From contig CAWHBU010000005.1 of assembly GCA_963827685.1 (NCBI GenBank), forward strand, positions 64,001-128,000: a stretch of DNA of 64,000 nt, given 5' to 3'. Both the position numbers and the translations under genes were made by a program. Positions 35,962-44,235 of the stretch are shown one piece after another; position 1 is the first letter of the stretch; each line of letters starts with the position of its first letter. The notes under the pieces are model-generated. The model had not been told where the DNA came from. It saw nothing but the letters and a program-made list of their open reading frames with translations, and did not search any database. The DNA comes from an uncultured delta proteobacterium (GTDB taxonomy: Bacteria; Desulfobacterota; BSN033; UBA1163).

Positions 35962-37215
35962 CTAAAGAAAGGTGTGACTGTACGCCTTTTCGACCGCCCT
36001 TCCGATCCGGTAACCGAGGAAGCCGCCCAGAGCCGAGCCCACAACGCCCTGGCTCGTCTGAATCGTCACAAACCAGGTGGCGTAAAACTTGTGCCATATG
36101 AAGGGTGCTGAGACGAGATAGAAGTAAAGGTAGACAACAAGCCCCCGCAAGGCCCCAGCGGCAGTTGCCCCCCAAGGGGTTCGAACGTAATCGCGGGTTA
36201 TCAGAAAAAAAGTCTCCAAGGACAACGATTCGATTATTATGTACGGCCACCAGAGGGGATTTACGCCCCTCGATATCATCTGGCCAAGGAGACTATTCCC
36301 GATGATGATCAAAGAGGCTGTTCCGGATTTCGGTATCAACCGAATACCGGTGAAAAGAACGCAGGTGAACGGGACCGAGAAAAAGAAAGCCTGGATGAAG
36401 GGAATTCTACTCAGGCCCATCTTAAAGGGCAGTGCCGCAAGATAGAGGAGGCTGATGAAGAAGGCGATCACGACAAGGTCGATGGTCGTGAACTTCTGGA
36501 ACAAGCTCTTGGAACGGGATACAGAGGTGGTTCGGGTTACAGAGAATCCACGCACCTCGGCGGCAAGGGCTAGGAGGCGGGCCTGCCGCAGGGAGTTTAT
36601 GACAAGGGGCTGGAGCAACAGCCGAAGGACCTTGAAGGCGTTGATTATTCCCCTTGTCCTAATCCCCCTCAAACGTAGCCCCAGGAGTATCCTCCTCATC
36701 TCTTCCAGAAGCTGAGGCATGAACCGCAGGCTGACGAGGAGGATCAGACCGAGTTCGCGGGGGATCCTTATCCTTTTGAGAGACAAAAGGATTTCAGAAG
36801 GGTGGGTCGATGCAACGATAGCGGTCGCTACAAGGGTCCCCGAGATAAGGCGCAATGACTGGACGAGACCGTAAGTGAGCCCCTCCTTGTAGAGCTGGAC
36901 GCCCCCCGTAATCCTGCCTATGCAGGGAAACTGCTTCGGCACAATCGTGATGAGGACCGTTCGGGGTTCGAAATAGTAGAAAAAGGCCTGAGAAATCATT
37001 GTTGAGATGACGATGGAGAGTATGACGAGAAAAAGAGCCCTGAACCGATGAACACGGACCCCGGCGAAGAGAAGCACCATCAGGGTTGAGACGACCAGGA
37101 CGAGGAGGTGGGCTGGTCGGTTGAGGATGACGATCAAGGCCGAGACGACAAGGCTGTAGCCGATCTTGGCGAGGGGATGGACCCGGCTGAGTAATGACCT
37201 ACCCACGCTTTTCAT
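35962..37215 (-). CDS. ECF transporter T component fused to an extra membrane domain (possible S component)
   Basis: VHPLAK, LRFMP, LRG and VRGF coupling motifs, followed by about 170 hydrophobic residues. Confidence 0.75.
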   Translation of the reverse strand: MKSVGRSLLSRVHPLAKIGYSLVVSALIVILNRPAHLLVLVVSTLMVLLFAGVRVHRFRALFLVILSIVISTMISQAFFYYFEPRTVLITIVPKQFPCIGRITGGVQLYKEGLTYGLVQSLRLISGTLVATAIVASTHPSEILLSLKRIRIPRELGLILLVSLRFMPQLLEEMRRILLGLRLRGIRTRGIINAFKVLRLLLQPLVINSLRQARLLALAAEVRGFSVTRTTSVSRSKSLFQKFTTIDLVVIAFFISLLYLAALPFKMGLSRIPFIQAFFFSVPFTCVLFTGIRLIPKSGTASLIIIGNSLLGQMISRGVNPLWWPYIIIESLSLETFFLITRDYVRTPWGATAAGALRGLVVYLYFYLVSAPFIWHKFYATWFVTIQTSQGVVGSALGGFLGYRIGRAVEKAYSHTFL

Positions 37216-38617
37216 CAGCGGCTATCCTACCCTTCACTAAGGTGACAATTCTCTTCCCATAGCGCCTGACGGCTCTCATGTTGTTGGAGGAGAAGATGAT
37301 AGTTGTTCCGTGCTTGCTCAGGATTTCCGTAAGGTCCATGAGCTTTGCCCAGTTTCCCTCGTCGAGGCCGGTTGTTGGTTCATCTAACAGGAGGATCTCG
37401 GCCTCGGGCCTTAAAATTGAGAGAAAAGCCACTTTTTTCCGCTCGCCCCGGGAGAGGCAGTGGGGATGGACTGAGCGGTGATGGACAAGCCCCATGTAGC
37501 GTAACAGCGGCTCTATGAGCGTGTTTGGTGACCTCCGTTCCCCTCCGAGGAGCAACTCCGCTTCGACCGTATCGGCGAACATCTGCTCGTCGGGGTTTTG
37601 GAACAGGTAGCCGACCTTGCCTGCAAGGGAATCAAGATAAGGACTCTCGTGCCCCAGGAGGGATACTGAACCCCGTTGCGGCTTCACAAGCCCAAGGATT
37701 ACTCGAAACAGCGTGGTCTTGCCCGATCCATTGTCGCCCACGACCGCTACCATCTCCCCTCTCGTGACGGCGAGAGAAATATCGTGAAGGGCAAAACTCC
37801 GGTCTTTTACCTCGTACGTGACATCATCGAGCTTTAAGACTTGTTGACGTGGTCTGTCATGTCTCTCCAGAATCCCTCCCTCTCGTTCAGTAAGGGTGCG
37901 GGTGGGGGTGGTTTCCATCCAGTCCGCCGGCTCGGGCATCTCCCCATCCTGATCCTCTTGGTGTCCATGCCTTTCCAGGAGCAGGACCTTGTCAGGAGAA
38001 AAGGGAAGATCTTCACCATCATGGTCAGCAATAAGGATAGTATGGCCCTCCTGTTTCAGCTTCCCGATCACGTCGAAGAACTTTCTCCAACCTTTCTCGT
38101 CGAGGTCGGTTGTCGGCTCATCGAAGAGGAATACCTTCGGCCGCATCGCATAGGCGCCAGCGATGGCAAGCCTCTGCTTCTGCCCACCCGAGAGCCTGGA
38201 TGTCTCCCTGTCTTGCAGTTCCGTCAAGTCGAGTTCTCGAAGGGCCCCATCTACCCGCTCTTTTACATGCTGGGAGGGGAGGCCTAGATTTTCGCAGCCG
38301 AAGGCTACATCTTCCCCAACACGGAGCATGAAGATCTGGTTGTCGGGGTTCTGGAAGACCGTGCCGACAGTTCTGGACATCTCACCGACGGTAACATCCA
38401 TGGGTTTCACCCCATCCACTTCAACATCACCCGACAGCGTCCCTTCGATTACATGGGGGATGAGCCCATTGATGCAGAAAAGGAGCGTGGATTTCCCGGT
38501 GCCTGATTCTCCCTTTATAAGGGCTAACTCGCCCTTCCCCACATCGAGGTTCACATTGATGAGGACAGGCTCCGGCGAGCCCGGATACGAATAGGCGAGG
38601 TTGCGGATCTTTAGCAT
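37199..38617 (-). CDS. ECF transporter tandem ATPase
   Basis: Two Walker A motifs (GESGTGKS, GDNGSGKT) and FQNPD twice. Confidence 0.9.
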   Translation of the reverse strand: MLKIRNLAYSYPGSPEPVLINVNLDVGKGELALIKGESGTGKSTLLFCINGLIPHVIEGTLSGDVEVDGVKPMDVTVGEMSRTVGTVFQNPDNQIFMLRVGEDVAFGCENLGLPSQHVKERVDGALRELDLTELQDRETSRLSGGQKQRLAIAGAYAMRPKVFLFDEPTTDLDEKGWRKFFDVIGKLKQEGHTILIADHDGEDLPFSPDKVLLLERHGHQEDQDGEMPEPADWMETTPTRTLTEREGGILERHDRPRQQVLKLDDVTYEVKDRSFALHDISLAVTRGEMVAVVGDNGSGKTTLFRVILGLVKPQRGSVSLLGHESPYLDSLAGKVGYLFQNPDEQMFADTVEAELLLGGERRSPNTLIEPLLRYMGLVHHRSVHPHCLSRGERKKVAFLSILRPEAEILLLDEPTTGLDEGNWAKLMDLTEILSKHGTTIIFSSNNMRAVRRYGKRIVTLVKGRIAADEKRG

Positions 38618-39324
38618 CGTCGTAGGTTATTGGTAAAGAGGTCAATAACCCCGTTGTAGTCCTCACCCGAGGAACGGGAGAAGGTGACATTCCGGAGGTA
38701 CTTGCCCGCAAGGGACGCCACCTGTTCGACTTCTTGATAAGATGGTTCCCTGATGTCGAGTCCGTCCACCTTCATGTAGCCGATGATCCGGTAGGGGATG
38801 TCCTGGTCGACAGAAGCCACGAACCTTGCAATCCCTTCGATCTCTTCGCTGTCGATCATGCTGGGGATGTAGACGGATGAGGCCGAGAGGCCGACACCAG
38901 CCGCGTGAATCTCTCTGAAGTGCTGCAAACACCGCTGGTTCGACTTGCCGGTATACTTCCTGTGGAGCCTGTCATCGAGGGCCTTGATCGACATGGCCAC
39001 GTGGGTGACACCATCAAGGTTAGGGAGTATATAGCCGTTGGTAATCAATCTCACCTCACAGCCGAAGGCGTCTCTCAAGGCTGCGGGCAGGCGGTTGAAG
39101 GCTGGGCTCGGCCTCGCCTCTCCACTGAGGATCGACACACTCCGAGGACGCACAGGCCCGAGGAGCGTGAGGACCTCGTCGAGATCAAGCCGCTTGACCC
39201 TTTTGAGGCTAATTTTTCCGTAAATCTGCTTCCAGTAGCAGCAGAGGCAGCGGAAATTGCAGCCGATGAAATAGAGGGAACAGGAACCGCTCTTCGCATT
39301 GTGGGTGATGCGGTGAATATTCAT
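38611..39324 (-). CDS. Radical SAM protein (activating-enzyme-like)
   Basis: GCNFRCLCC (CxxxCxxC), SGE, ITNGY, SIKA. Confidence 0.85.
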   Translation of the reverse strand: MNIHRITHNAKSGSCSLYFIGCNFRCLCCYWKQIYGKISLKRVKRLDLDEVLTLLGPVRPRSVSILSGEARPSPAFNRLPAALRDAFGCEVRLITNGYILPNLDGVTHVAMSIKALDDRLHRKYTGKSNQRCLQHFREIHAAGVGLSASSVYIPSMIDSEEIEGIARFVASVDQDIPYRIIGYMKVDGLDIREPSYQEVEQVASLAGKYLRNVTFSRSSGEDYNGVIDLFTNNLRRC

Positions 39325-39458: not shown

Positions 39459-39507
39459 AAAAAAAACCACGAAGGGGAAGGTCTCCGGACCTTTCTGCCT
39501 TCGTGGC
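39459..39507 (-). promoter_or_regulatory. Dual-hairpin attenuator motif, copy 1
   Basis: GCC-ACGAA-GGC, AAGGUC-CGGA-GACCUU, CCUUCGUGG-U8. Confidence 0.75.
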
Positions 39508-39514
39508 TGATGTC

Positions 39515-39583
39515 AATATAACTTTTCTTTTTCGGATTTGTCAAAATTTTTTTCTTGACAAAGAAAAGTAAATTGTTTATAGA
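39515..39583. promoter_or_regulatory. Divergent back-to-back sigma70 promoters
   Basis: Minus strand TTGACA(39544-39539)-18-TATATT; plus strand TTGACA(39555)-17-TATAGA. Confidence 0.7.
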
Positions 39584-39599
39584 AACATCTGAATTGAAT

Positions 39600-39710
39600 G
39601 CCACGAAGGTTTGGGTCTGAAGACCTGCTCTCGTGGCTTTTTTATTTTGTCGAAATCAAAACCACGAAGGTTTGTGCCTCGCTGAAGCGACACATCTCGT
39701 GGTTTTTTTT
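39600..39710 (+). promoter_or_regulatory. Dual-hairpin attenuator motif, tandem copies 2 and 3
   Basis: 39600..39643 and 39658..39710; CCACGAAGG...C-UGAA-G hairpin...CUCGUGG then a U-run. Confidence 0.78.
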
Positions 39711-39862
39711 ATGGGAAAAAAGGAAATGGTGTGCAGTTGGAGAGGGACAACTTACGATATTATTTTCCTTCTCTACGTCGGCGACAATGAAAAAACGACC
39801 AACGAGAAATGGTTTTTACATCTTCCAACGAGAAAAAAGATGGAAGGTTTAAGGAGACGCTT

Positions 39863-40579
39863 ATGGAACAGGCCGTATGTAAAAGAGTGGCAACCGTCAA
39901 ATTCTGGGATGCCTATGCGAAATGGTATAAGCTTTGGATGGAACACACTCACTATCATGAGAGAATTATCGAGGTGCTCATGGCTATGTCCAGACCGGGT
40001 TGGAAGGTCCTGGATATCGGAGCTGGAAACGGTATTCTCTCAATACCTCTCTGCGCCCGGAGGTGTGAAGTGACGACCCTCGAGCCTTCCATTGGAATGA
40101 GAAACCTGCTGTATGAGGAGGCATTCAAGAATAGGGTTGATGGGTTTAACGTCGATGAACGAATTTGGGAAGAGGTCCCCTGTTATGAGTTTTTAGATTA
40201 CGACCTCATCATGGCGTGCAATGCCCTTCACTTGACGCAGATCGGATTTGAAGAAGCCCTTGCAAAAATATTTCGGACAGGGCCGCGAAACGTCTTTCTG
40301 ATTTCAGAACTTGGACCGCCGGAAATCCAGGTGAAATGCCATTATGGCAATTACACGATGGCCCTTATGAAATCCTACGAAACGGATAGCTCTTACGCCT
40401 ACCATCATCTGAATGAAGTAGTGGAACACTGGATCTTTAAAAAGGGGCGATCCCTTCAACCTGACGAAATCCGTGATCTAAAAGAAAGGGTCGTTCTTCA
40501 GAACGGCCATCTCTGGATAAGGGATACGGCGCGAGTGATGATGTGCTGGTGGAAAAAAACATCTATGAATTTTAGCTAA
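39863..40579 (+). CDS. Class I SAM-dependent methyltransferase
   Basis: VLDIGAGNG, LEPS; RBS aaggag before the ATG at 39863. Confidence 0.88.
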   Translation: MEQAVCKRVATVKFWDAYAKWYKLWMEHTHYHERIIEVLMAMSRPGWKVLDIGAGNGILSIPLCARRCEVTTLEPSIGMRNLLYEEAFKNRVDGFNVDERIWEEVPCYEFLDYDLIMACNALHLTQIGFEEALAKIFRTGPRNVFLISELGPPEIQVKCHYGNYTMALMKSYETDSSYAYHHLNEVVEHWIFKKGRSLQPDEIRDLKERVVLQNGHLWIRDTARVMMCWWKKTSMNFS

Positions 40580-40659
40580 GGAAGCAACTATTTTTTTTAG
40601 TCCGGATCAAAATCGTAGGAATTTGTTGAAAGGGGAATCGTTTTCGTTTTGAATAGCAG

Positions 40660-40765
40660 AGCCACGAAGGTGTGAGGTCAGAAGACCTTTTCTCGGTAGC
40701 TTTTTATTGGAACTAAACCACGGAGGTTTGATGTCCCACAGAAGCAAAACCCTTCGTGGTTTTTT
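40660..40765 (+). promoter_or_regulatory. Dual-hairpin attenuator motif, tandem copies 4 and 5
   Basis: 40660..40705 and 40715..40765, upstream of the TonB receptor. Confidence 0.72.
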
Positions 40766-40821
40766 AGTTTATTTCACCATAAGAAAGCGGGTGATAAAAG
40801 ACTTTGGGGAGGAGGTCTTCT

Positions 40822-43020
40822 ATGAAGGGAGTAACAAGCCAGCTAGTTGTAATCATTTTCAGTTTGATTCTCTGTATCTCTACGGGACTGGCGGAAGAGA
40901 TGCAAAAAGAAATAACGCTCGAAGAGATTGTGGTTACGGCGACCAGGACGGAAAAAGAGGCGGGGATGGCACCCGCTTCCACCAGCGTAGTGACAAAGAA
41001 AGAAATCGAAATGCGCAATACCCAGGCCGTTGACGAGGCGCTAGACGATCTCCCAGGAGTTTTTGATAGGCGGAACAAGGGCCTCATGGATACCCAACCC
41101 GGTGTGACGCTGAGGGGTATTCCGGGACAGCAAAGGACACTCATTTTATTGGACGGCATGGCCCTTAACAGTGCATACGACGGGACTGTTACCTTTACAG
41201 GTTTGGCACCAGAGGGCGTAGAGCGCATCGAGGTTGTCAGGGGTCCTTTTTCGAGCCTCTACGGAAGTTATGCGATGGGTGGGGTTGTGAATATTCTGAC
41301 CAAGATGCCGCAGAAAAGGGAGGTTACCCTGAAGGAAGGCTATGGATCAGACAATTATTGGAGTACCTATGGTTCTTACGGGGATAAACTCAAGGATTTA
41401 AGCTTCTTTGTGAGCGCGGGTTACAGATCGACAGCTGGCTACATAACGAATTTCGACGTCCAAAGCCTCAAGCCACCGGCAGGCATTGGCGGATGGTCGA
41501 CGACGAGCAACAACATGGGCAATCTCCGCTACCTGATCGGTGACTCGGGTAAGAATGGATGGTTTGACTACAACGTGACAGCGAAAATTGAATACGATCT
41601 TACGGAGACATCTAAGCTGAGATTTTCCTATTTGAGAATCGAAAGTGGTTATAAGTATGGTAATCCGGACACCTATCTGCTGAATGCTTCCCACAACCCG
41701 GTATTTAGTTATGGCACCGTAAACGAGTCGAGCTTCCTTTCGGGGAATGGGGGTAAGATACAGAACATCTTCAACCTTGGCTATGAAACCAAGTTCTCAG
41801 ATATCAAGGTAAAACTCCTTCTGAGCTGCAATCAGCTGGAGGATAACTGGTACATCACGCCCGGCTCAACTTCGGCGACTACGCAATTCGGAGGACCCGG
41901 CACCCTAGACTCGACTCCATCCATCAACTACAATGCCGACTTGCAGTTCACGGTGCCCCTTGTGCTGCCCATCGTAGGTAAACACGTCCTCACTTGGGGT
42001 GGCTCGTATCGATACGATTCGGCGAATACACAGGAGCATCAACTTTACAACTGGAAAGATGAAAACTCCCAGACCCGGCTCAGTTATCATGCGGGAGGAA
42101 AGGACATGGACTTTGCACTGTTTGCACAGGACGAGATACCGATCCTCAATAACCTTACAGCTTATATCGGTTTCAGAGAAGACTGGTGGAGGGTATTCGA
42201 CGGTTATGCAAATATTGTTGGATCTCCAGGTTACCCGCAGGATTACAGTTCGAGAACTGCCTCCTCTTTCAGTCCAAAAGGGGCACTGGTCTATAACCTT
42301 TTCGAGGGGACTGTCCTGCGGACTTCCGTGGGAAAAGCCTTCGTGGCCCCGACCCTTTATAATCTCTTCAGGACATGGAGCTATTATGGGGTCACCTACC
42401 ATGGAAATCCCAATCTAAAACCTGAAACAAGTTGGTCGTGGGATATCGGTGGAGAGCAGAGGCTGTGGAAGGGAGCCTTGGTCAAGGCCACCTATTTTGA
42501 AAACTATGTAGACGATCTCGTCTATAGGAAAACCGTTGACGCACAGAATCAGGTGTATATTAACGTAGGCAAGGCAGAAATCAAGGGGGTCGAACTTGCG
42601 GCTGAACAAAAGTTTGATTTCGGTTTACGGTTATTTGCCAACTATACTGATAATATTGCTGCAAAGGTCGTAAAAAACAGCATCAACCCAGGGTCCGAAG
42701 GCAAGCAGTTAACCCTTACGCCGAAGGAGATGTTTAACATCGGAGGGGAGTGGGCCATGGGCCCCTTCAGCGCTAGACTTGTCGGAAGATATGCGAGTAA
42801 GCGATACAATGACGATCTCAACCGAGATACGGTCAATCACGTCTACGGCTCGTATGATCCTTACTTCATCGCAGACGTGAAGCTGTCGTACAAGCTAACT
42901 ATGTTCGGGGTTTCAGGGATCGCTTCGTTTGCAGTCGACAATATATTTAATAGGAATTATTTTTCCTACTACAAGGCGCCTGGCAGACAATGGTTTGGTG
43001 ATCTGACTATAAAATATTAG
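40822..43020 (+). CDS. TonB-dependent outer-membrane receptor
   Basis: EIVVTATR, IEVVRGPFSSLYG..AMGGVVNI, NPNLKPE, PGR and a terminal aromatic residue. Confidence 0.95.
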   Translation: MKGVTSQLVVIIFSLILCISTGLAEEMQKEITLEEIVVTATRTEKEAGMAPASTSVVTKKEIEMRNTQAVDEALDDLPGVFDRRNKGLMDTQPGVTLRGIPGQQRTLILLDGMALNSAYDGTVTFTGLAPEGVERIEVVRGPFSSLYGSYAMGGVVNILTKMPQKREVTLKEGYGSDNYWSTYGSYGDKLKDLSFFVSAGYRSTAGYITNFDVQSLKPPAGIGGWSTTSNNMGNLRYLIGDSGKNGWFDYNVTAKIEYDLTETSKLRFSYLRIESGYKYGNPDTYLLNASHNPVFSYGTVNESSFLSGNGGKIQNIFNLGYETKFSDIKVKLLLSCNQLEDNWYITPGSTSATTQFGGPGTLDSTPSINYNADLQFTVPLVLPIVGKHVLTWGGSYRYDSANTQEHQLYNWKDENSQTRLSYHAGGKDMDFALFAQDEIPILNNLTAYIGFREDWWRVFDGYANIVGSPGYPQDYSSRTASSFSPKGALVYNLFEGTVLRTSVGKAFVAPTLYNLFRTWSYYGVTYHGNPNLKPETSWSWDIGGEQRLWKGALVKATYFENYVDDLVYRKTVDAQNQVYINVGKAEIKGVELAAEQKFDFGLRLFANYTDNIAAKVVKNSINPGSEGKQLTLTPKEMFNIGGEWAMGPFSARLVGRYASKRYNDDLNRDTVNHVYGSYDPYFIADVKLSYKLTMFGVSGIASFAVDNIFNRNYFSYYKAPGRQWFGDLTIKY

Positions 43021-43078: not shown

Positions 43079-43936
43079 TTAAGTTTCATTAAGGAGCTTT
43101 TCATACTGCTCTGGGCTCCTGTACCCTAATGCCGAATGACTCCTCTGACGATTATAAAACACTTCCACGTACTCAAAAATACTAAGCCTCGCCTCCAGCC
43201 TTGAACGGTACCGCTCACCATGGACCAACTCCGTCTTGAGCGTGCCAAAGAAAGACTCCACATAGGCATTATCATAACAATTGCCACTTCTGCTCATACT
43301 AGGAGTCATGCCGTATTCTCTTAAAAGCTCCTGATAGGCATAGCTTGCATACTGCCTGCCTCGATCAGAATGGTGGATCAACCCTTCAGAGGGGCTTTGC
43401 CTGCCCACCGCGTCCCTGAGCGCAGCAGAAGCTAGCTCCTGAGAGAGCTTATCGCTCATGGACAGCCCAATGATCTTTCTGCTTTTCACATTCATCACTG
43501 CTGCCACATAGAGCCATCCCTCAGAAGTGGGCACAAACGTAATATCAGATGCCCATACCCCCTCTGTCTGCCTCTGGTCAATCAGTAAGTTTGCAGCCAA
43601 GGCATAATGATGCCGTGAATCGGTAGTCCGCCTGAATCTCTTTTTCTTCACTTCTGCCCATATGGAGTGCTCTTTCATGATCCTGGCTACCCGGTTCTTC
43701 CCACATCTAAGACCCTGCTTATTGAGCTCCGCTGCGATCCGCGGACTCCCATAGAGCCTTCTGCTTTGAGTGTGGATCTCCCGTATGTGCCCCAGCAACT
43801 CCTCATCGTCTTTCTGACGTGTGCTCGGTTGACGCGTCTTCCACGCATAATAACCACTTCTGGATACCTTCAACACTTCACTCATACTCCTTATCTTGTA
43901 GGTCTCTCTGTGCTCTTCTATCAACCGATACTTCAT
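43079..43936 (-). CDS. IS3 transposase OrfB
   Basis: WASDITF, HHSDRGRQY, DNAYVESFF. Confidence 0.93.
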   Translation of the reverse strand: MKYRLIEEHRETYKIRSMSEVLKVSRSGYYAWKTRQPSTRQKDDEELLGHIREIHTQSRRLYGSPRIAAELNKQGLRCGKNRVARIMKEHSIWAEVKKKRFRRTTDSRHHYALAANLLIDQRQTEGVWASDITFVPTSEGWLYVAAVMNVKSRKIIGLSMSDKLSQELASAALRDAVGRQSPSEGLIHHSDRGRQYASYAYQELLREYGMTPSMSRSGNCYDNAYVESFFGTLKTELVHGERYRSRLEARLSIFEYVEVFYNRQRSHSALGYRSPEQYEKLLNET

Positions 43937-44235
43937 CTGTTTCGTTTGGAGAATACGGCCAAGGCTTTTTTTAAAATGTCCCTCTCTTCCTTCACCTTTT
44001 CTAATTCCTTCCGGAGCCCCTTTATTTCCGCTTCCTCTGGCGTTACACGGCCCTTCCCTACGAAGGCTTTATCCCCTTTAGCTAAGAACCTCCTCCTCCA
44101 TAGATGAAGAAGATTGGGATGGATATCAAGCTCTCGGGCCACCTTGCCTACCGGCATCCCTTTCTCTGTGACCAACTGCACTGCATCTCGTTTGAACTCA
44201 CGGCTGAAATGACGATTCTTTTCCCCCATACGCAC
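43933..44235 (-). CDS. IS3 transposase OrfA
   Basis: FSREFKRDAV HTH; ERDILKKA with an A7 slippery run. Confidence 0.93.
   Translation of the reverse strand: MRMGEKNRHFSREFKRDAVQLVTEKGMPVGKVARELDIHPNLLHLWRRRFLAKGDKAFVGKGRVTPEEAEIKGLRKELEKVKEERDILKKALAVFSKRNR

Follow-up and report, generated by a model that had tools for sequence, protein, structure and literature searches.

What does a short sequence element do that stands in every leader of a divergent uptake locus, at some of them twice in a row? The question is raised by a 64,000-nucleotide stretch of DNA, here called the window, from an uncultured delta proteobacterium (assembly GCA_963827685.1, contig CAWHBU010000005.1, positions 64,001 to 128,000). 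Five copies of the element lie there in the leaders of a radical SAM-energy-coupling factor (ECF) transporter operon, a methyltransferase gene and a TonB-dependent receptor gene. An earlier note, made from the letters alone, had taken the element for a dual-hairpin RNA switch, in which a small first hairpin (P1) and an intrinsic terminator exclude each other. Our analysis leads to a different answer. The element apparently represents an undescribed family of RNA hairpin-terminators and, at what we consider even chances, would act as a default-off leader terminator of a nickel (or nickel/cobalt) uptake regulon, relieved by a trans-acting factor that reads its invariant 5' arm.

Five copies and their common fold

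All five copies were found where the earlier note had placed them, both in the sequence and as matches to a covariance model of the element (R1, described below). Together with the adjacent promoters they are as follows.

39459..39510, minus strand: copy 1, leader of the radical SAM-ECF operon; GCCACGAAGG...CCUUCGUGG followed by U8; R1 score 42.9 bits
39544-39515, minus strand: sigma-70-type promoter TTGACA-18-TATATT, from the promoter scan (11/12 matches)
39555..39583, plus strand: promoter-like TTGACA-17-TATAGA, read by eye; omitted by the scanner, its last base not being T
39597..39644, plus strand: copy 2, first of the tandem pair ahead of the methyltransferase gene; 50.3 bits
39658..39710, plus strand: copy 3, second of this tandem pair; 54.0 bits
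40658..40707, plus strand: copy 4, with a degenerate 3' arm (CUCGGUAGC) and a weak hairpin; 46.4 bits
40714..40767, plus strand: copy 5, immediately 5' of the TonB-dependent receptor gene, with a decayed inner hairpin; 61.3 bits

The minimum-energy fold of every copy is one long hairpin, with the inner hairpin nested in it and a U-run directly behind. By sequence and fold this is the make-up of an intrinsic terminator, i.e. a stable GC-containing hairpin with an immediate U-run. The outer stem pairs (R)CCACGAAGG with CCUUCGUGG(Y) or CUCUCGUGG(Y); in its consensus form it comprises 10 bp, with GCCACGAAGG opposite CYUUCGUGGC. Evaluated against shuffled sequences, the fold energies were -24.5 kcal/mol for copy 1 (z -3.65), -21.5 kcal/mol for copy 2 (z -4.65), -20.1 kcal/mol for copy 3 (z -3.13) and -18.3 kcal/mol for copy 5 (z -3.51). 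Copy 4 reached -15.6 kcal/mol (z -1.29), equalled by 21/200 shuffles, which bears out the degenerate 3' arm ascribed to it before; the inner hairpin of copy 5, likewise reported as unclear, is indeed weak. The motif CCACGRAGG occurs 10 times in the window (1.0 expected; maximum of 100 shuffles, 4), seven times inside the five copies and three times in coding sequence elsewhere.

Both promoters proposed earlier ahead of copies 1 and 2 were recovered, the minus-strand one by the scanner and the plus-strand one by eye. The -10 box of the former ends 7 nt ahead of copy 1, and transcription would start at or adjoining the first G of the element. The plus-strand sequence lies 16 nt ahead of copy 2, with a putative start about 9 nt ahead of that copy; relatives have TTGACA-17-TATAAA at the same distance.

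The 5.2-Mb genome contains seven copies in total, all in two uptake loci, with the two extra copies (copies 6 and 7) on contig C2. A dispersed repeat or mobile element of the repetitive extragenic palindrome (REP) type is excluded by this confinement, and the 1-9 copies found in each of the other genomes of the order also speak against REP-like scatter. One extra copy stands ahead of a gene for a DUF3842 protein (142 aa), with a consensus promoter on its 5' side and 12 nt to the gene. The other lies between cooT, the next gene after DUF3842, which encodes a 62-aa CooT-family nickel-binding protein, and cbiM. This operon recurs in relatives in the order promoter, weak copy, DUF3842, CooT, strong copy, CbiM-(PDGLE/NikK-like)-CbiQ. 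The DUF3842-type copies keep GCCACGAAGG, usually with UGAAG next to it, yet only GCCAC/GUGGC is able to pair; their internal loop is asymmetric, its purine-rich 5' strand (GAAGG-UGAAG) being conserved and its 3' strand conserved neither in sequence nor in length. The cooT-cbiM spacer of the window's genome holds, in addition, a GC-rich stem-loop between cooT and the strong copy (L001:1416-1461, the GCGUUAGGGG...CCCUUUGCGC region), for which neither conservation in relatives nor a match in Rfam was found.

As the earlier note had expected, comparison with Rfam 15 (cobalamin, Moco and NiCo families included) returned no family. There were 0 matches at the gathering threshold over the whole window and nothing around the sixth and seventh copies; matches on the locus at E up to 10 were noise, the best being rliH with 25.7 bits vs 100. 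The inner hairpin GGUCUGAAGACCUGC resembles a B12 box, an identity that we rejected because its stem covaries freely and no cobalamin model matches. By eye, a cobalamin-riboswitch-like sequence (GCCACUG, B12-box-like AGUCAGGAGAAC) adjoins the DUF3842-CooT pair of a Bacillota metagenome-assembled genome (MAG), about 300-600 nt downstream of CooT (locus L244). We found no description of the element in the literature; the supplementary motif lists of non-coding RNA surveys, which were outside the scope, might hold one. In the main text of two Breaker-lab surveys there is no mention of nickel, cobalt, cbiM or TonB.

Conservation of the hairpin and of its 5' arm

Model R1 was seeded with 32 copies chosen with a two-arm pattern and is hence biased towards that pattern, which itself matched in 47/55 genomes of the order (reversed control, 0-2 matches per genome). 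With R1, the element was detected in 52/55 genomes and 21/21 genera of the order, and in 48/151 sampled genomes (34/111 genera) of the phylum Thermodesulfobacteriota, so that the search of related genomes suggested earlier carried the element through the order and beyond it. For re-alignment, 80 non-redundant loci yielded 150 matches and, after removal of opposite-strand overlaps, 130 places; four of these were look-alikes of a cold-shock protein type, and the tallies of following genes, T-runs and tandem pairs given here refer to the other 126 elements; the look-alike was likewise dropped from the rows used for the conservation of the arms. This look-alike is a 42-nt hairpin, GCCACAAAAG...CUUUUGUGGC plus a U-run (G000:C1:403050-403091, the same as L104:2551-2592; also in L101, L103 and L105). 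At least 14 genomes of the order have it some 60 nt ahead of the gene for a cold-shock protein. It scores with the model and has GCCAC/GUGGC in common with the element, but its arm is different and there is no nickel context; it was set aside as another hairpin.

An exact-pattern scan of 185,579 species genomes gave at least 119 matching stretches, and 80 loci were read. Among the matches listed, the hairpin is carried by Desulfobacterales, Syntrophia-type MAGs and Desulfobaccales, by Nitrospirota (Thermodesulfovibrionales) and by Bacillota (Peptococcaceae, Clostridia, Ruminococcus, Anaerosolibacter). The genes behind these listed matches encode CbiM/NikM, TonB receptors, TonB-ExbBD and DUF3842-CooT (L172), further ECF S components, DUF4198, OprB-type porins and an FmdE/zinc-finger protein, as well as, in Bacillota, a NikA-type substrate-binding protein (L159) and an Opp/Nik-type permease (L192). 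Pattern matches in cultivable bacteria include Desulfoluna butyratoxydans MSL71 (L195), where exbB follows the element, and Anaerosolibacter carboniphilus DSM 103526, the carrier at L159. R1 matched in 7/151 genomes of a Clostridia sample, two of these matches being clearly ahead of CbiM/NikM.

Two of the more distant neighbours were recorded separately. The FmdE/zinc-finger gene directly downstream of the element at L127:6744-7358 encodes 204 aa in which an FmdE domain is combined with a C4 zinc finger of the DksA/TraR type; its homologues in L137, L158, L149 and L180 lie behind the element in several orders and in Peptococcaceae. In an Oscillospiraceae MAG (L197:6564-7406) the element precedes the gene of a 280-aa PP-loop ATPase with weak ThiI/QueC-type matches, conceivably a LarE-like enzyme from the pathway to the nickel-pincer cofactor.

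Pairing is conserved well beyond what chance would give, in agreement with the earlier note. In alignment A3 (145 distinct sequences, fitted to the model, which favours structure), 88.5% of cells were paired compared with 44-58% when the 3' partners were slid, 267 cells showed double changes compared with 26-96, and compensatory change was found in 13/17 pairs. The inner stem varies freely (GGUC/GACC, UCGC/GCGA, CCCGC/GCGGG, UUCCAC/GUGGAA and others), the NGAA loop is closed by C-G in some copies and by U-A in others, G-U wobbles are common, and C-to-U changes in the 5' arm are matched by G-to-A (GCCAUG...CAUGGC). A run of at least four T at the 3' end was present in 126/126 order-level elements, and fold energies ranged from -13.5 to -33.8 kcal/mol.

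The two arms of the outer stem differ in their conservation. In the 5' arm, C5, C6, A7, G9, A11, G12 and G13 are invariant in 120-121 of 121 distinct rows, while the 3' partners of G12 and G13 drift (C in 70-75 rows, U in 32-36, A in 8-10 and G in 4-7). An invariant arm opposite drifting partners suggests that the 5' arm is recognised by its sequence. Beyond the order, the inner hairpin and its loop are variable or gone, and outer stem and U-run are the only constants; inner hairpin and NGAA loop are thus not the common recognition element.

These findings do not support the dual-hairpin switch. P1 (CC-ACGAA-GG) consists of merely 2-3 invariant pairs, so that nothing in it covaries, and it is energetically negligible: it gains -1.6 to -4.6 kcal/mol over the arm-blocked fold, and forcing it loses 7-13 kcal/mol relative to the terminator fold, which argues against P1 as an autonomous structure. 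The second hairpin of the proposed switch is the inner one, with its NGAA loop, that is not universal outside the order. When the 5' arm was blocked in silico, the inner hairpin alone was left in 4/6 copies, copies 1 and 6 retaining a second hairpin. Two known dual-hairpin families were rejected as well. ANTAR targets consist of a pair of hairpins in tandem whose hexaloops are conserved and of which the second overlaps the terminator, whereas the element has one nested hairpin, capped by a loop of 4 nt (NGAA), neither of them conserved, and both dispensable, outside the order. Guanidine-II (mini-ykkC) RNAs have two hairpins of several base pairs with an ACGR tetraloop on each; here the 2-3 closing pairs of CC-ACGAA-GG, the energy lost on forcing them and the lack of an Rfam match speak against membership.

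Could the RNA itself be the sensor? A direct riboswitch would hold an aptamer for Ni2+/Co2+, a small nickel complex or another metabolite within the terminator and need no protein. The element is small, lies at the 5' end and is often tandem, as are some riboswitches, and its regulon is coherent for one metal. Tandem G-U pairs, a known type of divalent-metal site, occur at G12 and G13 in about 30% of copies, and the DUF3842-type copies have the asymmetric internal loop with its conserved purine-rich strand. A precedent for a terminator-embedded aptamer exists in the HMP-PP (thiS motif) riboswitch (excerpt of PMC6478431), which resembles the element in being a very small leader structure with functional nucleotides within the terminator and no separate expression platform. 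The two differ in that the element precedes nickel/TonB uptake instead of thiamin genes and in that its conserved bases form a plain helix arm, not a loop or bulge pocket. Measured against what riboswitches generally display, the stems covary, but the nucleotides conserved throughout are part of a regular Watson-Crick helix and not of loops or junctions, and the internal loop of the DUF3842-type copies is conserved on one strand only, its other strand varying in sequence and length. With the inner hairpin and NGAA loop lost or replaced outside the order, one sees no common core that could form a pocket; terminators of -20 to -33 kcal/mol would gain little from stabilisation by a ligand, and no competing fold is available, given the cost of forcing P1. 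We therefore regard a direct riboswitch as unlikely.

Placement in transcripts and proposed mode of action

A co-directional gene begins within 500 nt of the element in 101/126 cases, an opposite-strand gene is next in 5/126, and no gene, or the end of the locus, follows in 20/126. According to Pfam scans of cluster representatives, the 101 following genes encode CbiM/PDGLE (43), TonB receptors (21), DUF3842/CooT (16), methyltransferases (14), TonB/ExbBD (4), radical SAM proteins (2) and one other product. With 21 tandem pairs among the 126 elements, the location in 5' leaders, often in tandem, that the earlier note described for one locus is general; its tie to metal uptake genes holds in 52/55 genomes of the order and beyond, the 17 best loci outside the order again having the element ahead of CbiM, PDGLE or TonB receptors. 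Structure, conservation, position and gene association of the element are in this way directly observed.

The window's divergent locus, found again in other genera, contains the following genes.

35962..39324, minus strand: operon behind copy 1 (Pfam, NCBIfam), made up of the next three genes
38611-39324, minus strand: radical SAM protein, first gene of the operon
37199-38617, minus strand: double ECF ATPase
35962-37215, minus strand: CbiQ-like T component, 417 aa
39809..40579, plus strand: SAM-dependent methyltransferase, 256 aa (Pfam Methyltransf_25/23/12), between the two tandem pairs
40804..43020, plus strand: TonB-dependent receptor, 738 aa (Pfam Plug and TonB_dep_Rec_b-barrel), behind copies 4 and 5

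The operon stands behind the same element in relative G013 (L068), and methyltransferase orthologues are located downstream of the element in relatives, too. In the T component the CbiQ match covers residues 6-226 only; the C-terminal approximately 190 residues have no assigned family and could be a fused S component. The receptor scored under all NCBIfam equivalog cut-offs. Directly downstream of its gene lies an IS3-type transposase with two open reading frames (HTH_Tnp_1, then rve integrase core; window positions 43079-44235, minus strand).

The distance from the end of an exact TTGACA to the element is 29-32 nt in 27 cases, and in 14 others it is 37-39 nt. Transcripts would accordingly be predicted to start at about the first G of GCCAC or some 8 nt upstream of it, and the hairpin to begin at about +1 to +10, while second tandem copies and cooT-cbiM copies are without a promoter of their own. 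A hairpin at the 5' end of the transcript would leave no upstream RNA that could serve as antiterminator of promoter-proximal copies. A leader peptide or Shine-Dalgarno mimic (GAAGG/GGAGG in the 5' arm) was rejected, as there is no conserved start codon or reading frame and transcripts would begin at the element.

The same region might be read at the DNA level, by a metalloregulator that binds the inverted repeat GCCACGAAGG-N-CCTTCGTGGC at +1 to +50 and acts by occlusion or as a roadblock, in the manner of a NikR box. Palindromic arms and the start of 41 elements 7-16 nt past the -10 box, a classical repressor position, would fit, and NikR sites, too, consist of inverted repeats set far apart, GTGTTAC-N13/14-GTAACAC with a fixed spacer in delta-proteobacteria, and are bound as DNA (excerpt of PMC545781). 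The spacing of the arms, however, ranges from 12 to 42 nt and varies even within one genome; the arms are unequally conserved, with G-U-type differences that are meaningful only in RNA; the inner stem covaries; the T-run is on the transcribed strand in 126/126 elements; and many copies (cooT-cbiM spacer, second of tandem) lie far from promoters. We consider a DNA operator very unlikely, and a NikR operator in particular was rejected for the variable spacer and because NikR_C was not found in the window's genome (94.5% complete).

In some relatives (L021, L033, L036, L044, L045, L046, L062, L066, L067, L038) the promoters ahead of tandem copies contain, between -35 and -10 box, a conserved perfect palindrome, AATCGATT (in TCTTGACAA.AGATTT.AAATCGATTA.AAA); the window's own promoter does not have it. 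The palindrome may serve as a DNA operator in addition to the RNA element.

Such an operator would also suit the view that the elements are constitutive attenuators or insulators, which terminate a fixed fraction of transcripts while real regulation takes place elsewhere, e.g. at promoters, and which share their sequence through descent and duplication. The hairpins are by fold strong canonical terminators, and decayed copies such as 4 and 5 of the window exist. Four strong terminators in series ahead of a TonB receptor would nevertheless mean permanent silence unless relieved, the 5' arm is conserved beyond the needs of pairing, and descent alone hardly explains the same 10-nt arm in at least three phyla ahead of non-homologous ECF, Opp-type and TonB systems. 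For these reasons we hold constitutive action to be quite improbable.

Least credible to us are small RNA (sRNA) schemes, in which the terminated transcripts of about 50 nt act in trans or an unlinked sRNA with CCUUCGUGGC pairs with the 5' arm and antiterminates. The terminated product would have the hairpin and U-tail of an Hfq-type RNA, and linear recognition of 10 nt could be base pairing. The putative seed is, however, buried in a 10-bp stem, and a whole-genome scan for orphan 3'-arm-like sequences, whose matches were not compared with gene positions, gave apparent background, the 9-mer occurring 108 times in the genome vs 92 times for the reversed control.

In the leader-terminator reading to which we give even chances, the element (10-bp outer stem, nested hairpin, U-run) would serve as an attenuator located at the transcript 5' end or up to about 10 nt from it, or between operon genes. 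The RNA alone would terminate, setting the default to OFF, and tandem copies would tighten it. A trans-acting factor, most likely a protein, would read GCCA(C/U)G(A/G)AGG of the 5' arm sequence-specifically, binding it on exit from RNA polymerase ahead of 3' arm synthesis; the bound factor would block the hairpin and permit read-through when metal is scarce. The regulon would comprise NikM/CbiM ECF transporters, TonB-dependent receptors, TonB-ExbBD, Znu/Tro-type ATP-binding cassette transporters, two methyltransferases and the DUF3842-CooT pair. The element would probably be an on/off gate for metal import.

Protein-mediated attenuation is established for HutP at the hut terminator and for LicT/SacY at the ribonucleic antiterminator (RAT). 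TRAP at the trp leader is a further example (excerpt of PMC3064811). The scheme proposed here is like them in that a protein would read a short nascent-leader sequence overlapping or competing with an intrinsic terminator; it is unlike them in having one invariant 10-mer at the transcript 5' end, no triplet repeats or RAT hairpin, and a metal as putative signal.

Proposed signal and candidate factor

Our best guess at the signal is nickel. It draws on the nickel-binding CooT, on the Nik-like ECF transporters (CbiM-like S component with PDGLE-domain or DUF4198-like partners), on the NikA/Opp-type systems in Bacillota, and on NikR, of which the C-terminal domain model NikR_C found nothing in the window's genome. 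In the phylum sample NikR was present in 8/48 element-positive compared with 63/103 element-negative genomes; the regulator and the element are largely complementary. Cobalt, or another ligand common to these transporters, is the alternative. NikR boxes control these uptake genes in classical delta-proteobacteria, and NikR regulons include nikMNQO-type ECF transporters and, in some bacteria, TonB-dependent nickel uptake (excerpts of PMC545781 and PMC11247825). The element has the same target genes and would follow the same logic, with uptake off when nickel is sufficient, but NikR acts on DNA and the element appears to behave as RNA. The NiCo (czcD) riboswitch, which is over-represented in anaerobes, is likewise RNA-level and linked to nickel and cobalt; it is a four-way junction that turns on efflux genes and whose metal specificity is debated (excerpt of PMC11672702), as opposed to a single hairpin ahead of uptake genes that has no Rfam match.

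Which protein could read the arm? The earlier note saw no RNA-binding regulator in the window; this is true of the window, but elsewhere in the genome a CooT-family protein adjoins copies 6 and 7. Together with DUF3842, its constant neighbour, it is the sole candidate for the factor, and only a candidate. The local CooT is well supported (Pfam E 2.4e-25; PDB 6fan E 1.8e-15) and keeps the N-terminal Met-Cys; CooT binds one nickel per dimer via Cys2 with a dissociation constant of 9 nM (excerpt of PMC6006190). DUF3842 was found in 46/48 element-positive vs 12/103 element-negative genomes of the phylum sample, in 6/7 vs 47/143 genomes of the Clostridia sample, and in 9/10 genomes of other phyla with a pattern match. 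CooT was less specific in the phylum sample (45/48 vs 45/103). We find it conceivable, though doubtful, that a CooT-family protein, alone or with DUF3842, is a nickel-sensing RNA-binding antiterminator that reads the 5'-terminal GCCACGAAGG of nascent leaders. NasS-NasT, a two-protein module in which the sensor releases an RNA-binding antiterminator (excerpt of PMC3795266), would be the formal analogue of CooT as sensor with a partner.

DUF3842 is probably a Rossmann-like, nucleotide-binding protein. Its predicted structure gave generic Rossmann-like Foldseek matches (TMq up to 0.58), the weak PDB neighbours being UbiX (TMq 0.52), the FtsZ N-domain and ArsC, while a PDB sequence profile search returned nothing under E 0.1 and a protein-atlas search no usable match. 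Complex prediction for DUF3842 with CooT scored 0.00 in a run without controls and is evidence neither way.

Several points weigh against a factor-relieved nickel terminator of this kind. Termination, its conditional relief, the existence of the factor and nickel as signal, including nickel responsiveness itself, are what we infer from comparative data; the start sites are placed by promoter consensus alone, and the window's plus-strand promoter is non-canonical. Some of the matches in other phyla (at thymidine kinase and Fe-alcohol dehydrogenase genes, and in Bacteroidota records) are probably chance terminators, since a stem-matching terminator is, by our estimate, not rare among so many genomes. 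Eight element-positive genomes hold NikR as well. The co-occurrence counts are clade-structured, so that Fisher values exaggerate them, and confounded, DUF3842 and CooT being nickel genes and regulon members themselves, and the pair may equally be regulon cargo; in 12 genomes of the phylum sample DUF3842 is present but no element was matched, and nine genomes of other phyla have a DUF3842(-CooT) locus without an adjoining element. CooT homologues are acidic (median isoelectric point 4.96), and the JGI label 'predicted RNA-binding protein' of the CooT cluster is an annotation, not a test. The DUF3842 model (pLDDT 96.8) is a generic Rossmann/flavodoxin-like domain with a glycine-rich loop and no recognisable RNA-binding fold, which would suit a chaperone partner dependent on nucleotides no less than it would suit a regulator.

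As a kind of control, attenuation in leaders by means of an intrinsic terminator is already known; the novelty lies in the family, in its location at the 5' end, in the invariant arm and in the nickel-uptake regulon. To our knowledge, nickel uptake has so far been found to be controlled at the level of DNA only (NikR, Nur). The case for an RNA-based solution lies in the occurrence of the element ahead of NikM/CbiM, TonB receptors and TonB-ExbBD in at least three phyla, mostly in genomes without NikR, and in the lack of an Rfam family. With a terminator at the first transcribed bases and an invariant 5' arm, a trans-acting reader and an embedded aptamer would be the only choices left, and either would be new. 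Should CooT/DUF3842 prove to be the antiterminator, an RNA-level nickel regulon would have replaced NikR in much of Thermodesulfobacteriota, Nitrospirota and Clostridia, and a regulatory function would be found for DUF3842 and for the long-puzzling 'accessory' protein CooT. Testable roles for DUF3842 and for the CooT paralogues unrelated to carbon monoxide dehydrogenase would follow, and the nickel regulons of uncultured anaerobes would become predictable from sequence alone.

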